From: an uncultured Verrucomicrobiota bacterium
Lineage (GTDB): Bacteria; Verrucomicrobiota; Kiritimatiellia; JAAZAB01
Assembly: GCA_964444425.1 (NCBI GenBank)
Contig: CAYUHK010000006.1
Coordinates: forward strand, 5,424-69,423
Direction of reading: 5' to 3'
Length of the DNA stretch: 64,000 nt
Shown here: positions 22,493 to 54,513 of the stretch, in pieces
Layout: the number at the start of each line of letters is the position of its first letter
Position numbering within the stretch: position 1 is the first letter of the stretch
Translations under genes and position numbers: made by a program
The notes under the pieces: generated by a model
Databases searched by the model: none
Seen by the model: only the letters and a program-made list of their open reading frames with translations
What the model was told of the DNA's origin: nothing

Positions 22493-23854
22493 ATGAAAAA
22501 GCACTGGCTGCTGCACATTCTTGCAGGCTTGGCAATCTCCAGCTTAGCCCTTTGGAATCTCATGGACCGGGCCAGCGGCGCGGCAGTCCGTTCTGATGCA
22601 TTGCATTATCTAGCTTATGGCTATAATCTTGCACGGCATCATGTTTTTTCAAGGAGCATAAAGGACACTGCCGAAGACGCCTGGCTTACTCGAACTTGCT
22701 ATCGCACTCCAGGTTTCCCCGTCTTTCTAGCAACCTGCCTTACCCTGCATCCTAAATTAAAGAAGGCCTCTCTAGCGCAACTTACAGCCAATGAAGTGGA
22801 ACGTTTATCATTGGCATACGATCTGACGCACCTGGTAAATCCGGGCGATTCGCTGATGCTTGAGGCATTGGTTAAATTGCCCAGTACAGACCGAGCCTCT
22901 TCGCCCTTGCTGCTGTATCCGCTACAAACTAGGCTTCAACTGTCTGGTTCAGGGAATGGGGCGCTGTTTATCAATACTCAACCATCCGAAAATGATGCAA
23001 CATGGACATGGGAAGGCGGCCAAACCGAGGCAGATTTTTTAAGTGGCGGCAATAGCTGGCTATTAACATCATTAAAAAAGATCAACGTGCCAAAGAGCGC
23101 AAAAATTTTGGCTGGTATTACCTTCCGTCCCTATGCCACTGGCGACAGTTTGCAAATCAAGCAATTCCGCGTTACCAGGCAATCAGATAACACTGTCTTG
23201 ATTGATGATGATTTTACGGTCTGGAATGGCCCGGCAACCGTGCAAGATGAGCAAGTCAGCGCTATTGGCGGCAAATTGAACATAATGGCGGAAAAACAGG
23301 GCGACTTTGTCCTGACACATGGAATGGAAGATGGCGTCGCATACCAAGAAATAAAGTTTATTCGCCCTGGGTCAACGCCGCTCCTTGCCACCCTCAAGGC
23401 CATGCAAGCTCCTATTGTACTTGTAGTTGCTTGGCTGGCCTTCAGCATTGTATTGAAACTCACTAGGCGTATTAGCCTCAGTTACCTTGCGTTATGCCTT
23501 ATTCTTTTTAGTTTTACCATGCAGGAGCAAATGAACACCCTGCTTACGGAATTGCTCACTGGTACGATTCTCCTGGTTGTAGCCTGGCTATTATATCTTA
23601 TTACAAAACAGTCACGGTTCTGGTTGTGGATAGCGCTTGGGGTGCTTACAACTGCCTTGGCCTTTACGCAAGCGGTGACACTTTATTTGCCTGGCATTAT
23701 TGTTATTCTGGCCCTGTTGCTTCTGGGCAAGCAACCAAAAGGAGCCCGCCTCAAATATCTTGCGGGTGTGCTAAGTTTTGCCTTGATCTGCGCGCTCTCG
23801 CTGGGCGGCTGGATGACGCGCAATTTAACTGCCGGCGGCAATGGCCGCTTTTAG
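22493..23854 (+). CDS. membrane protein carrying an ArnT/PMT-like DALHY loop motif. A probable membrane-protein C-terminal continuation is readable in another frame up to 24030.
   Basis: Start taken at the internal ATG 22493, which has an AAGGTGA RBS. The motif RSDALHYLAYGYNLARHH parallels TDALRYLGYSLKLAQH in 24119..26638. The overlapping ORF 23626..24030 has a hydrophobic tail (PLLAFCLPALYLFGFYAMF...). Confidence 0.5.
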   Translation: MKKHWLLHILAGLAISSLALWNLMDRASGAAVRSDALHYLAYGYNLARHHVFSRSIKDTAEDAWLTRTCYRTPGFPVFLATCLTLHPKLKKASLAQLTANEVERLSLAYDLTHLVNPGDSLMLEALVKLPSTDRASSPLLLYPLQTRLQLSGSGNGALFINTQPSENDATWTWEGGQTEADFLSGGNSWLLTSLKKINVPKSAKILAGITFRPYATGDSLQIKQFRVTRQSDNTVLIDDDFTVWNGPATVQDEQVSAIGGKLNIMAEKQGDFVLTHGMEDGVAYQEIKFIRPGSTPLLATLKAMQAPIVLVVAWLAFSIVLKLTRRISLSYLALCLILFSFTMQEQMNTLLTELLTGTILLVVAWLLYLITKQSRFWLWIALGVLTTALAFTQAVTLYLPGIIVILALLLLGKQPKGARLKYLAGVLSFALICALSLGGWMTRNLTAGGNGRF

Positions 23855-24118
23855 CCTTTTGCCTGCCGGCTCTTTATCTATTTGGTTTTTATGCGATGTT
23901 TTCGCATCATCTTATGCGATACAGCTATCCTATAATACCAGTGCTGGTGATAATTTTTATGCTGACCATGAATCATTTCCTTACTTTGCGTCAGCGAGTG
24001 GAGCCACAGAATGTGCGCATGGAGAATTAAAGAGTTATCCATAGACATTCATCATCGCAGTTAAGATCAGGATCGAATGGAAGGAAAACCGATAAGACAT
24101 CACGGAAGTGTTTAGAAA

Positions 24119-52442: not shown

Positions 52443-52446
52443 CTAA

Positions 52447-54513
52447 ATGGAACCAGGCCTTAAAATGATCTTGGCTTATTGGCATAACCAGGCTGCGCCG
52501 TGGACACTAGCGCTGCTTATGTTTTTGGGCAGTCTGGCCTGGGCGGCCGCTGCCGCGCCGCCGGGCGCGGCGTTAGCAGCAGCTGAGGTTGCCGCCACCC
52601 AGGCCCTTATCGAGAAACATTATCAGCATATTTTGCGGCGCCAGCCCGATCCCGGCGGACTGGAAACCTATACCCGAGCTTTGTTGCAGGATGGCGAAAA
52701 TGAGCAATGGCTTATCCAGGTGCTCAGGGCTTCGCCGGAAGCTCGCCAGCTGCGCAAAGCTCAGCGAGCTAAACTGGTCAAGCTGCTGCTAGGCCTGGGA
52801 ACCCTTGTGCTGGCAATTGGGTTCAGGCGGCCGCTGCGCTTGGCCTGGTCGGTCGGCCGCAAGGCTGCTGACCGTGTGGTTGATCGTTGGCAGGGCTGGG
52901 CTTGGCCCTCCTGGGGGGCCTTCTGTGGGGCGCTGGGCTTGCTGTTTTTTTTGCGAGGCCTTATTTTGTTAAGCGTCTATCCGCCGCTGGAAGGGTTCGA
53001 CGAACACCAGCATATTGCCTACCTCGTGTTTGTTAACGAACAAGGACAGCAGCCACGCTATGGCACCGCGCAAATTCCCTTCTCGCTCTATGCTGATCTA
53101 GTTGCTAATCCGCATTCCGATTATGGTTGGCAACAACTCAAGGAGATCGGCGCCAGACGCTATAAGCATTTTTGGTCGGCCGGGACGCCGCCGGCGCCGG
53201 ACTATCGGTCGGCGGTTATGCTCAGCGCTGCTTTTCACCCCCCTCTTTATTATAAATTGTTTGCCAGCTTGTTTGTTAATCTGAAACAGATTTGGGGCTT
53301 TCGGCCGGCGGTCTACGCCTTGCGCCTCATCAATCTGGCCTTGGCAGCATTTTCGGTGATGCTCTATGTCTGGCCTTTGCGGCGCCTATTCGCGACTTCC
53401 CATCATGCCAGGGCCGTGGCATTGGTTGTCAGCTTGGCTCCCATGTATCTGGTCTACGCGGCGCGCATATCCAGCGATGGCTTGGCTTTGTTGATAAGCG
53501 CCGCGGCCTTTGCCGGGCTAGCCGCTTTCCCGCGACAGCGGCCGGCAGGTGTGGCCGTTAGTGCGTTGCTGCTGGGAGCCTTGCTGGGCTTGGGGATGTT
53601 AGTGCGCGCTTCCGCGGCTGTTTGGTTATTGGTAACTTTGGTTTACATGAGCTGGCTCTTTTTGAACGGCCGCCTGAGCGGACCGCTCGCGTTAATGGCC
53701 TTGGCCCTTAGCTTGACCGCTTTTATGGCGGTCGCGCTGCCTCAATTTTTGAACAACCTGGCCTTGTATGGCCAGGCTATTCCCGGACAGGAAGGCATGC
53801 GCCTGATCGCGGCCCAGCAAGGATTCGCCGCGATAATAACAGCTGCCAGATTTTCCGATCTAAACGAATTTTTTATTATTAGGATGATTCGCGATAATTT
53901 GTGGACGAGTGGCTGGCTCTTTTTGCAGCCAGCGCTTATTTTGCGGCGTATTTATTGTGGCTGTGTTCTGGCTTGTTGGGCTGGCGCGGCCTTTGGGTTG
54001 CTGCGTTTGGGCCGCCCGGGCCAGCGCCAGCTGCTCGGCGCTGGGCCCTTGATAGCCTTGGGATTGGCTGCCACGCTATTGACCTTTGCGGGAGCCTATC
54101 TGCACGCTTTATCTTGTCGAGCTGCCTATGGCAGCATTTTGACGCCAGCTTACTACGCCATGCCGGCCTTTTTGCCATTCTTGGCATTAACCTTGCAAGC
54201 GGCCGGCGGTTGGGGCCGCTTGCTCGAGAAGGCTTTGCTGATAACTTTAGGAAGCGTATTTATAATAACAGAGTTTTATGGAACTTTTTTTATTGGCGCG
54301 CCGCGGTGGGCTTACACATTGGCGCCGATGGAGATAATGCGGCGTTTAGCAGAGCTGCACCCGACCTTTCCAAGCCCAGCATGGCTGGCTCCATTATGTT
54401 TGGGCTATGGCCTGCTCGGTGGGCTGCTAGCCATCTCCATCAGGGCATCCGCTCGTAATACGCGCCGCGCTCATCCGCCTGCGCCGGCTCGGCCGGCAAT
54501 TGATCTGAACTAG
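52447..54513 (+). CDS. DUF4214 domain fused to a polytopic GT-C-like membrane protein (688 aa)
   Basis: N-terminal DUF4214-like segment (HYQHILRRQPDPGGLETY), then more than 10 TM helices with a first-loop PPLEGFDEHQHIAY motif resembling the GT39/GT83 DE loop. Confidence 0.5.
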   Translation: MEPGLKMILAYWHNQAAPWTLALLMFLGSLAWAAAAAPPGAALAAAEVAATQALIEKHYQHILRRQPDPGGLETYTRALLQDGENEQWLIQVLRASPEARQLRKAQRAKLVKLLLGLGTLVLAIGFRRPLRLAWSVGRKAADRVVDRWQGWAWPSWGAFCGALGLLFFLRGLILLSVYPPLEGFDEHQHIAYLVFVNEQGQQPRYGTAQIPFSLYADLVANPHSDYGWQQLKEIGARRYKHFWSAGTPPAPDYRSAVMLSAAFHPPLYYKLFASLFVNLKQIWGFRPAVYALRLINLALAAFSVMLYVWPLRRLFATSHHARAVALVVSLAPMYLVYAARISSDGLALLISAAAFAGLAAFPRQRPAGVAVSALLLGALLGLGMLVRASAAVWLLVTLVYMSWLFLNGRLSGPLALMALALSLTAFMAVALPQFLNNLALYGQAIPGQEGMRLIAAQQGFAAIITAARFSDLNEFFIIRMIRDNLWTSGWLFLQPALILRRIYCGCVLACWAGAAFGLLRLGRPGQRQLLGAGPLIALGLAATLLTFAGAYLHALSCRAAYGSILTPAYYAMPAFLPFLALTLQAAGGWGRLLEKALLITLGSVFIITEFYGTFFIGAPRWAYTLAPMEIMRRLAELHPTFPSPAWLAPLCLGYGLLGGLLAISIRASARNTRRAHPPAPARPAIDLN

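Follow-up and report, generated by a model that had tools for sequence, protein, structure and literature searches.

Three intact, very different GT-C-fold glycosyltransferases, and a deletion-inactivated candidate fourth, in and near a glycan cluster of an uncultured Verrucomicrobiota bacterium

A 64,000-nucleotide stretch of DNA from an uncultured Verrucomicrobiota bacterium (the whole of it is called here the window) encodes four large proteins, ORF1 to ORF4, which an earlier note had described as paralogous ArnT/PMT-like GT-C glycosyltransferases of one locus, and the question that this locus raises is whether they are indeed one kind of enzyme and what they could do. The four ORFs were found at or near the places where they had been described, all of them encode polytopic membrane proteins, and the peptides quoted for them are present (RSDALHYLAYGYNLARHH in ORF1, STDALRYLGYSLKLAQHR in ORF2, ADIWAHLGRIQ in ORF3 and GFDEHQHIAYLVF in ORF4). 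The relationship between them is a different one: the window holds three intact, very different GT-C-fold glycosyltransferases from three separate sequence families, and the four proteins that had been grouped are unrelated or only distantly related. The features of the region are collected in Table 1.

Table 1. Features of the glycan cluster (15.3-39.2 kb), of ORF4 and its surroundings, and of the second GT2 gene; positions are those of the window.
Feature	Position	Strand	Assignment and basis
Four nucleotide-sugar genes, cluster start	15262..19579	+	Pfam: GFO/IDH/MocA oxidoreductase, hexapeptide acetyltransferase, DegT aminotransferase, UDP-sugar dehydrogenase
GT2	19709..20661	+	Resembles polyprenyl-phosphate sugar synthases (AglJ, PpgS, DPMS, ArnC); Pfam Glycos_transf_2
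Membrane protein, 324 aa	20771..21745	+	Polytopic; hydrophobicity profile
Methyltransferase remnant, 106 aa	21948..22268	+	Pfam Methyltransf_23, profile positions 81-151 of 164, E 8e-6, just under cutoff
ORF1	22349..24030	+	Deletion pseudogene, 714-aa polytopic protein (667 aa with start at 22493)
ORF2	24119..26638	+	GT-C-fold protein, 14 TM
Wzx-type MOP flippase	26831..28132	+	Pfam Polysacc_synt_3, Polysacc_synt; NCBIfam MOP flippase 5e-15
Candidate Wzy polymerase or ligase	28155..29516	+	Polytopic; Pfam Wzy_C E 0.015, 15.6 bits, sub-cutoff; TM profile
GT4 cytoplasmic glycosyltransferase, first of two	29574-30758	+	Pfam Glycos_transf_1 / Glyco_trans_1_4
GT4 cytoplasmic glycosyltransferase, second of two	30798-32057	+	Pfam Glycos_transf_1 / Glyco_trans_1_4
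GNAT acetyltransferase	first gene of 32325..34906 trio	+	Pfam Acetyltransf_1
Small PglC-type phosphoglycosyl transferase	33124-33714	+	Pfam Bac_transf 4e-55; NCBIfam
PglE/PseC-like aminotransferase	33743-34906	+	Pfam DegT 1e-114; NCBIfam
ORF3	34976..37294	+	GT-C-like polytopic protein, remote ORF2 homologue; family alignments A2, A5
PglF/PseB-like membrane-anchored UDP-GlcNAc 4,6-dehydratase, last cluster gene	37334..39247	+	Pfam Polysacc_synt_2 8e-111; NCBIfam PseB 5e-48
PEMT-like membrane methyltransferase	51105-51803	+	Pfam PEMT 1.5e-8; upstream of ORF4
Lipoprotein-like protein	51819-52442	+	Signal sequence with LAGC lipobox, read from sequence; directly upstream of ORF4
ORF4	52447..54513	+	DUF2142/PMT_2-type GT-C, N-terminal periplasmic DUF4214 domain; family alignment A3
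Second GT2, apparently intact	61681..62964	-	Four C-terminal hydrophobic helices; PDB phmmer ArnC 1.4e-9 (residues 28-326), DPMS 1.3e-7

The polytopic helical core of ORF2 superposes on solved GT-C enzymes, with AglB and STT3 as best Foldseek matches (650-710 aligned columns). At the sequence level, ORF2 gave no significant NCBIfam match, neither the protein nor its family profile matched PDB sequences, and no link of ORF2 or ORF3 to characterised GT-C families was found. The family comprises 269 representative clusters, and no Pfam match on the core domain was detected in 63 members, in such a way that the proposal of an undescribed subfamily is fair in one sense for this family. In these 63 members D147 (24557-24559), the candidate catalytic Asp of the DALRY motif (24557-24571), is invariant together with Y151, H183, H307 and Y473, whereas R261, D262, R265, N470, R472 and W531 are kept in at least 57. 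Position 148 is A, G, F, I, S or L and never D or E, so the alignment with homologues bears out the motif as far as the ORF2 family is concerned. Position 154 is Y in ORF2 and its closest relatives and E in 43 of the 63.

Taking 14 TM helices from the AF2 secondary structure, the short loops of ORF2 contain 21 K+R inside versus 5 outside, following the positive-inside rule, and the motif loop (residues 140-208) is predicted to be extracytoplasmic, as had been expected. In the predicted topology D147, Y151, H183, R261/D262/R265, H307, N470/R472/Y473 and W531 are all on the outer side of the membrane, and sequence position and helix order would place D147 in the active-site groove. The loop is extracytoplasmic, but it is not the first one: both ORF2 and ORF3 have three additional TM helices N-terminal to it, which put the loop after TM4 and make the N-terminus face outward. 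Also part of ORF2 are a periplasmic alpha/beta domain that is conserved (residues 531-643 or so) and a C-terminal region specific to the lineage.

ORF3 shares with ORF2 the three extra N-terminal helices, and its EL1-equivalent loop likewise opens with an invariant Asp whose next residue is not acidic. Its profile aligned with that of the ORF2 family by hhalign with a probability of 95.6% (E 1.3e-8, 291 columns), pairing D130 (35357-35359, residues counted from the TTG at 34970) with D147, and this homology supports the GT-C reading of ORF3. The invariant motif of ORF3 is GPYxExPxD, and the protein has a periplasmic domain that is conserved and, at its C-terminus, a beta domain resembling FN3, although the FN3 domain that had been reported in ORF3 is a sub-threshold match only (E 0.0075, 16.9 bits versus a cutoff of 25). 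ORF2 and ORF3 belong to two uncurated families with a remote relationship to each other. Among curated families, DUF6541 (PF20176) is probably the nearest to both, since two of 11 ORF3 relatives (8.3e-7) and one of the 63 ORF2-family members (0.0024) match its model, while ORF2 and ORF3 themselves do not. We know of no function for DUF6541, and no mention of it was found in the literature searched.

ORF4 is of another type. Its family has the invariant motif PPLEGxDEHQH, with D185-E186 at 52999-53004, and its orthologues match Pfam PMT_2 (PF13231, 2e-8) and DUF2142 (PF09913, 2.6e-11 in orthologue P0017); a protein 43% identical to ORF4 (P0018) is named DUF2142 protein by NCBI. ORF4 itself is under the Pfam threshold for DUF2142 and PMT_2, and its PMT match is also sub-threshold (17.1 bits versus a cutoff of 22.7), with the D-E pair present; in ORF1, ORF2 and ORF3 the PMT match, the PMT_2 match and the D-E pair are all absent. 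The D-E-x-x-H loop of ORF4 comes after a TM helix and is followed by an FHPPLYY segment, which we take to be typical of the DUF2142/PMT_2 families. It differs from these families by an extra N-terminal signal anchor, one more TM helix and the DUF4214 domain, the latter having been correctly noticed before (23.7 versus 23.2 bits for the Pfam cutoff when scanned alone). DUF2142 proteins have been described with GT2 genes as neighbours in the cell-wall polysaccharide loci of Gram-positive bacteria (PMC9746298), whereas ORF4 lies 13 kb downstream of the glycan cluster, separated from it by tyrS, rpsA and opp-type ABC transporter genes, so the idea of several GT-C enzymes in one locus does not extend to it. 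ORF4 can thus be assigned, through its orthologues, as a DUF2142/PMT_2-type GT-C with a classical D-E pair outside the cluster.

Regarding ORF1, what had been written as a frameshift (22493-23854, then to 24030) is actually an internal deletion, and the gene is therefore a pseudogene. Compared by BLASTN with a locus from another sample (L004), where the undeleted 714-aa allele (P0174) is found, 463 bp are missing (around 154 codons), and the junction is at 23829-23841, within CGGCGGCAA microhomology. Its DALHY (22595-22609) is immediately past TM1, and the ORF2-family HMM scored residues 34-133 of P0174 with 15.7 bits (E 1.7e-7 for a single comparison; 16 sequences compared), although hhalign of ORF1 with the ORF2 family reached a probability of only 10-15%. 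No Pfam or PDB match above the cutoff was obtained for ORF1 or P0174, the ORF1 scores for DUF7657, DUF6057 and DUF2079 being all far under it. Since only the first 100 residues or so resemble ORF2, the GT-C status of ORF1 is unproven, and it may be considered a deletion-inactivated candidate for a fourth enzyme.

The genes around ORF1, ORF2 and ORF3 form a glycan cluster. Its first four genes resemble WbpB/D/E/A, a pathway label suggested by their set of domains. The GT2 gene at 19709 is frameshifted in the window by a 4-bp (TTAA) deletion at 20210 that leaves a 176-aa ORF, whereas L004 has an unbroken 318-aa allele with two C-terminal TM helices. This allele showed sub-threshold NCBIfam matches to AglJ (5e-27), PpgS (5e-25) and, over its full length, ArnC, and also to Dol-P-hexose transferase and PgfS, and it matched DPMS (5mlz, 2.8e-12) and ArnC (3e-6) in the PDB. 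The 324-aa membrane protein, which gave no Pfam, NCBIfam or PDB match, stands between synthase and GT-C genes, in the place expected of a flippase for lipid-linked sugars, and its position suggests such a role; no GtrA, SMR or MATE flippase is recognisable in the window. In L004 no gene is called at the site of the methyltransferase remnant. The product at 28155..29516 is a weak candidate for a Wzy polymerase or a ligase.

In each of the three families the extracytoplasmic loop that follows the canonical TM1 begins with a conserved Asp (ORF2 D147, 63/63; ORF3 D130, 11/11; ORF4 D185, 8/8), and the single ORF1 sequence also carries it. In the EL1 motif of GT-C enzymes, where the catalytic Asp comes after TM1, the first Asp alone is universal (PMC7801869). 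A D-A in place of D-E, found in two proteins only, is consequently not an unusual feature, a lone Asp being already known in GT-C enzymes (PMC7801869, PMC11127046). Compared with the solved GT-C(A)-fold enzymes (Pmt1/2/4 of GT39, ArnT of GT83, AglB/PglB/STT3 of GT66, AftA and DPY19), to which its sequence similarity is undetectable, ORF2 has three additional N-terminal TM helices, an outward-facing N-terminus and a never acidic residue after the Asp, and no WWDxG motif or MIR domains were found in it. GT136 (ORF12 of Citrobacter youngae), described alongside three-component systems, uses D31, Y35, H106, H174, R349 and Y350 (PMC11127046) and, compared by description, is similar to ORF2 in having a conserved D...Y pair with a spacing of four residues immediately behind a TM helix (D31...Y35), in the His, His and Arg-Tyr set, in an extra beta-rich C-terminal domain and in being a GT-C of an O-antigen-type cluster near a polyprenyl-phosphate sugar synthase. 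It differs in having the Asp after TM1, no N-terminal extension and a UbiA-type PPPRS as donor synthase, that of the window being a GT2. A synthase gene beside a GT-C gene, as in Gtr-like three-component systems, is also found here, although the window's copy is frameshifted and the MATE or SMR flippase of such systems was not recognised.

The best reading, to which we give a probability of about 0.6, is that the GT-C proteins are outer-face transferases that depend on lipid-linked sugars and decorate or transfer the glycan made by Wzx/Wzy, side-chain addition being the favoured form; from fold, homology, conservation, topology and gene lesions we infer the donor, acceptor and catalytic roles as follows. 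The PglC-type initiator, the PglE/F-like and Wbp-like sugar-nucleotide enzymes and the two GT4s would build an undecaprenyl-diphosphate-linked repeat unit in the cytoplasm, which would be flipped by Wzx and polymerised by the Wzy-like protein. The GT-C proteins would then work outside the membrane: the Asp at the loop start would act as base, and the His/Arg/Tyr set would hold the donor, a polyprenyl-phosphate-linked sugar supplied by a GtrB/ArnC/DPMS-like GT2, by its phosphate and its sugar. The glycan would gain side-chain sugars in this way, as happens in three-component systems of periplasmic glycosylation. This reading also fits the genomic setting, ORF2 homologues elsewhere being located in Wzy/GT loci. 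The use of polyprenyl-phosphate- or -diphosphate-linked donors is suggested by the nearby GT2 genes of this type. With the donor synthase of the cluster itself frameshifted, donors for ORF2 and ORF3 would have to come from elsewhere; the GT2 at 61681-62964 is a candidate synthase of polyprenyl-phosphate sugars and could provide them to the intact GT-Cs.

ORF2, ORF3 or both could instead be en bloc oligosaccharyl- or polysaccharyltransferases or ligases which, like PglB, AglB and WpsJ, pass a finished undecaprenyl-diphosphate-linked glycan to an acceptor, be it protein, lipid or cell wall, and add no single side-chain sugars, an explanation that we regard as unlikely. Transferases of this class carry a DxD/DxH metal site in EL2, and D262 of ORF2 is in the equivalent loop; they also have a conserved periplasmic domain past the last TM helix, as do ORF2 and ORF3, and AglB and STT3 gave the top structural matches. 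Nevertheless, no similarity to STT3, PglB or AglB was seen at the sequence level, and WWDxG was absent by regular-expression search from the four proteins and from all 82 aligned members of the three families. The genomic context points in both directions. No ligase or chain-length regulator was identified in the cluster, and ORF3 homologues repeatedly adjoin genes for PglC, PglD, PglE or PglF, the enzymes that produce the sugar of the reducing end and put it in place (PglF in L008, 70% identical to that of the window and downstream of the ORF3 homologue; PglC in L012; PglC/D/E in L014), whilst attachment of a polymerised chain has been proposed for WpsJ, a GT-C protein of Gram-positive cell-wall polysaccharide loci (PMC9746298). 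By contrast, polyprenyl-phosphate sugar synthase genes are found beside ORF1/ORF2, in L009 and L011 close to homologues of ORF3, and two genes upstream of an ORF2 homologue (P0005, with a 316-aa GT2), and one ORF3 homologue (P0011) is outside any glycan locus. That ORF2 and ORF3 keep the GT-C fold with no glycosyltransferase activity, as scaffold or substrate-binding subunits like PIG-U and GAB1 or as polymerase or flippase accessories of the Wzx/Wzy machinery, seems to us improbable.

Least credible is the original proposal that the four are recent paralogues, forming one new ArnT/PMT-like subfamily defined by DAL[RH]Y in place of D-E and building a multi-branched glycoconjugate from one locus, which the comparisons already contradict. 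Across the six reading frames of the window the motif is found two times and no more (0.014 expected from residue composition), in ORF1 and ORF2, whose genes adjoin, and the HMM score of the ORF1 motif region is in line with some relationship between these two. Replacement of the acidic pair does not hold for all four, however, as ORF3 reads D-I-W-x-H and ORF4 keeps its D-E outside the cluster. BLASTP among the four detected no significant pairwise similarity, its sole match being the 17 residues around the motif that ORF1 and ORF2 have in common (E 0.026), and in hhalign the ORF4 family reached 1.7% with the ORF2 family and 0.8% with ORF3. The pseudogene ORF1 lacks, in the hhalign alignment, the H183 invariant in the ORF2 family. 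Membership in ArnT/GT83 or PMT/GT39 was found by sequence for none of the four, profile comparison with E. coli ArnT giving 0.3% for the ORF2 family and 0.2% for the ORF4 family.

Returning to side-chain decoration, the GT2 at 19709 and ORF1 are both broken in the window and both intact in L004, a pattern that points to the loss of one decoration module in this strain. Two of the proteins of this locus represent uncatalogued families, yet their place is in ordinary surface-sugar biology, and they are not a new kind of enzyme.

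All four membrane-protein ORFs described in the earlier note are present, the peptides quoted from them were found in the respective proteins, and their polytopic nature was borne out by hydrophobicity. They had been called paralogous, and this did not hold, as no significant pairwise BLASTP similarity was detected among the four, the sole match, over 17 residues at the motif, linking ORF1 with ORF2 (E 0.026). The motif DAL[RH]Y occurs exactly twice in the six frames of the 64-kb window, once in each of these two ORFs, with an expectation of 0.014 from the residue composition in these proteins, and it is no chance match, since both copies lie directly after a TM helix with a basic segment ahead of the helix. 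Pfam and NCBIfam scans of ORF1, ORF2 and ORF3 gave no significant match, a phmmer search of all four proteins against all PDB sequences gave nothing, profile searches of PDB sequences were likewise without a significant match, and no match to E. coli ArnT was obtained by hhalign with the ORF2 and ORF4 profiles. By sequence, ORF1, ORF2 and ORF3 are not members of ArnT/GT83, PMT/GT39 or STT3/GT66.

Coordinates of the features discussed, in the window unless a contig is named
Feature	Position	Strand
Glycan cluster	15262-39247	+
Hexapeptide acetyltransferase	16441-17082	+
Cluster GT2	19709-20661	+
TTAA deletion in cluster GT2	20210	
Methyltransferase fragment	21948-22268	+
ORF1	22349/22493-23854, other frame on to 24030	+
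DAL[RH]Y in ORF1	22595	+
ORF1 deletion junction	23829-23841 (L004 6494-6943)	
ORF2	24119-26638	+
DAL[RH]Y in ORF2	24557	+
ORF2 residue 154	24578-24580	+
ORF3	34970/34976-37294	+
1094-aa protein	44920-48204	-
Two genes preceding ORF4	51105-52442	
ORF4	52447-54513	+
Two adjacent GT2 genes	60734-62964	-
427-aa GT2	61681-62964	-
ORF2 homologue P0003	L005 243-2981	
Pairing of P0009 with a DUF2142 gene	L015 2734-4128	
Arrangement ahead of P0018	L016 5950-9596; L017 327-3973	

A word-indexed search gave only five relatives of ORF2, and when 1.84 billion representative proteins were searched exhaustively with a profile, a family of 269 clusters emerged (135 at E<=1e-30), mostly of around 640 aa. In an alignment of 63 members, with identities to ORF2 down to around 18-20%, residues D147, Y151, H183, H307 and Y473 are invariant (63/63), and A155, R261, D262, R265, N470, R472 and W531 are kept in at least 57. 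None of the 63 matches any Pfam model for the core domain, and one matches DUF6541 weakly (0.0024). With the ORF2 profile a weak match to 3vu0 was obtained (E 0.78) and disregarded as non-significant. The TM helices of ORF2, 14 in number, were taken from an AF2 model built on the 63-sequence alignment, and the K+R count of the short loops (21 inside, 5 outside) puts the N-terminus, the DALRY loop (residues 140-208) and all the invariant residues on the extracytoplasmic side, in agreement with the location claimed for the motif. The motif loop is not the first one, as had been supposed, and follows the fourth helix, because three extra helices lie ahead of the canonical first helix. ORF2 is accordingly a GT-C-fold protein whose conserved site, in this model-based topology, faces outward, and by its fold it is an enzyme of the GT-C(A) type.

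The proposed catalytic Asp of GT-C enzymes lies after the first TM helix, and of the D-E or D-D pair found in ArnT (D55/E56), Pmt1 (D77/E78) or EmbA (D281/D282) only the first Asp is common to all GT-C families (PMC7801869). At ORF2 position 148, A is present in 44 of the 63 members and G, F, I, S or L in the others, D or E never being found. The reading of D-A instead of D-E is a real family signature for ORF2, although it is not unusual in the superfamily and does not apply to ORF4. In the recently founded (2024) GT136 family the residue set is D31, Y35, H106, H174, R349 and Y350, in the setting of a three-component system of lipid-sugar synthase, flippase and GT-C protein (PMC11127046), and the ORF2 set D147, Y151, H183, H307, R472 and Y473 agrees with it in composition and in order. 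Four residues ahead of the end of the first loop helix, residue 154 is Tyr in ORF2 and its closest relatives, Glu in 43/63 members and Gln in 10/63, and this change in the ORF2 subclade may alter donor or metal handling.

Elsewhere, ORF2 homologues are located in Wzy/GT/epimerase loci, and a search of genome contigs with the 5-member alignment found only one locus, in an Anaerolineaceae MAG. The homologue P0003 carries a C-terminal segment 53% identical to the hexapeptide acetyltransferase of the window, which reflects either the loss of a stop codon or a genuine fusion that joins an enzyme normally found in the cytoplasm to a periplasmic tail.

Six relatives of ORF3 were obtained by protein search and six further loci from metagenome contigs, five of these loci being taken into an 11-member alignment. 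All its members have G122-P123-Y124-x-E126-x-P128-x-D130, and H134 is nearly invariant. When the profile was compared with that of the ORF2 family, the probability was 95.6% (E 1.3e-8) over 291 columns from the very N-terminus, pairing D130 with D147 and H292 with H307; a profile of only six ORF3-family sequences had given 88.5%. This match identifies ORF3 as a remote homologue that shares the N-terminal extension of ORF2. Two ORF3 relatives match Pfam DUF6541 (8.3e-7), of which no mention was found in the literature searched. The start codon is likely the ATG at 34976, because the homologues agree on it, and the FN3 domain assigned to ORF3 amounts to a sub-threshold C-terminal match (E 0.0075) missing from the more distant relatives. 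Among the neighbours of ORF3 homologues are PglF (70% identical, locus L008), PglC (L012), PglC/D/E (L014), a DUF2142 gene (L015) and GtrB-like GT2 genes (L009, L011), and one homologue, P0011, lies outside any glycan locus. In L015 the DUF2142 GT-C gene is placed around 340 bp downstream of the ORF3 homologue P0009 (44% identical), with a small 67-aa ORF between them, and therefore the pairing of these two GT-C types recurs outside the window.

ORF4 showed no detectable relationship to the ORF2 (1.7%) or ORF3 (0.8%) families. Its acidic pair had been described as replaced, and it is intact, because the segment P-P-L-E-G-x-D-E-H-Q-H..Y is shared without change by eight relatives. Direct scans of ORF4 gave PMT below threshold only (17.1 bits, cutoff 22.7), and its relatives match Pfam PMT_2 (2e-8) and DUF2142 (2.6e-11), NCBI listing one of them as a DUF2142 protein; ORF4 falls into the DUF2142/PMT_2 neighbourhood. 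The DUF4214 domain reported at its N-terminus was below threshold in the whole-protein scan and rose above the cutoff (23.7 bits) when this region was scanned alone. The gene lies 13 kb beyond the glycan cluster, and between the two are tyrS, rpsA, genes of opp-type ABC transporters and the gene of a large MBL/FG-GAP protein. This last protein, encoded among the transporter genes, has 1094 aa, with two metallo-beta-lactamase-fold regions and C-terminal FG-GAP repeats. In two independent contigs the genes ahead of the ORF4 orthologue P0018 encode a PilZ-domain protein and a protein of 508 aa that matched no family; in the window a PEMT-like methyltransferase gene and one for a lipoprotein-like protein stand ahead of ORF4 instead.

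Clustering at 90% identity groups ORF1 with a protein of 714 aa, P0174, whose contig L004 (SRR27710307) aligns with the window at 99.4% identity. Compared with it, ORF1 misses 463 bp between two CGGCGGCAA microhomology copies (short direct repeats), with the loss of around 154 codons (a long outer loop and one TM helix) and a shift of frame. Given this lesion and its presence in the independent assembly L001 (SRR8925793), ORF1 of this strain is a pseudogene. The variation is at the level of strains, since several assemblies (SRR8925793, NCBI contig) have the deletion and SRR27710307 has the complete gene. By sequence inspection, intact ORF1 has around 10 TM helices, with DALHY right after TM1 and then a loop of around 270 residues. 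It has no match in Pfam or PDB, and no relatives were detected in plasmids (tblastn) or metagenome contigs. The ORF2-family HMM matched its first 100 residues or so with 15.7 bits (E 1.7e-7 for a single comparison; 16 sequences compared), hhalign gave only 10-15% against the ORF2 family, with the invariant H183 lacking in the alignment, and 0.2% against the ORF3 and ORF4 families. ORF1 is an unproven GT-C candidate only.

The cluster GT2 is frameshifted by a 4-bp deletion compared with the intact L004 allele of 318 aa, which has two C-terminal TM helices. Its best NCBIfam matches are the polyprenyl-phosphate sugar synthases AglJ (5e-27), PpgS (5e-25), Dol-P-hexose transferase, PgfS and ArnC, and in PDB it matches DPMS (2.8e-12) and ArnC. 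That GT2 and ORF1 are both broken suggests the loss of a whole decoration module. Outside the cluster there are two adjacent GT2 genes, and one of these, around 7 kb from ORF4, encodes a 427-aa protein with four C-terminal hydrophobic helices and matches to ArnC (1.4e-9) and DPMS, a candidate second intact lipid-phosphate sugar synthase.

The cluster genes, all on one strand, begin with four nucleotide-sugar genes resembling WbpB/D/E/A, followed by the GT2, a 324-aa membrane protein and a methyltransferase remnant, continue with ORF1, ORF2, a Wzx flippase, a weak Wzy_C-like protein, two GT4s and a GNAT acetyltransferase, and end with a PglC-type initiating transferase, a PglE/PseC-like aminotransferase, ORF3 and a PglF/PseB-like dehydratase. 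The 324-aa protein has no family match in Pfam, NCBIfam or PDB, and its assignment as flippase-like (UPF0104/MprF) from the likeness of its GGIGVREA segment to such a domain was dropped for this reason. The fragment between it and ORF1 (106 aa) matches only the C-terminal part of Methyltransf_23 and looks like a gene remnant. GC content is 0.47-0.53 across 20-38 kb and 0.55-0.59 in the flanks, a dip typical of variable or horizontally exchanged surface-polysaccharide regions. The housekeeping proteins of the source organism are singletons at 90% identity in a collection of 15 billion proteins, and for individual genes the closest relatives that carry a name belong to Lentisphaerae, Aureabacteria and Anaerolineaceae MAGs.

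In the mechanism that we favour, ORF2, ORF3 and ORF4 would work on the outer face of the membrane with lipid-phosphate-linked sugars and would modify the glycan made by Wzx/Wzy, and ORF1 and the adjacent synthase would be a decoration module lost from this strain; the donor, acceptor and catalytic roles are all inferred. ORF2 or ORF3 may instead transfer the finished chain en bloc, as the top Foldseek ranks are AglB and STT3, a periplasmic domain comes after the final helix, the cluster yielded no identifiable ligase and ORF3 homologues repeatedly adjoin PglC/E/F genes; however, the WWDxG motif is present in no family member, and synthase genes are close by. In a wider and improbable scheme, the ORF2 and ORF3 families and DUF6541 would form an unrecognised GT-C clade, marked by an N-terminal extension of three helices and by a D-[non-acidic]-x-x-[Y/H] loop. 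To this clade would belong en bloc glycan transferases of a new class, separate from PglB/STT3 and from Wzy_C-type PglL/WaaL, that put glycans starting with a bacillosamine-type sugar on a protein, a lipid or the cell wall as acceptor; the recurrence of PglC, PglD, PglE or PglF genes beside ORF3 homologues is a hint of this.

As a whole, the locus has the usual character of variable surface-polysaccharide clusters, and among its several divergent GT-C proteins two come from uncurated families. It leaves the view of how GT-C enzymes work unchanged, its value being that of useful annotation. Since one sample has both GT2 and ORF1 intact and both are broken here, the pair of alleles offers a natural comparison for linking the module to a glycan decoration. 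If the favoured reading is right, the ORF2 family, with its 269 representative clusters, and the ORF3 family would be GT-C families that match no sequence in Pfam, NCBIfam or PDB, of a kind still being founded, as GT136 was in 2024, and each would offer a defined set of invariant outer-face residues that can be directly mutated.
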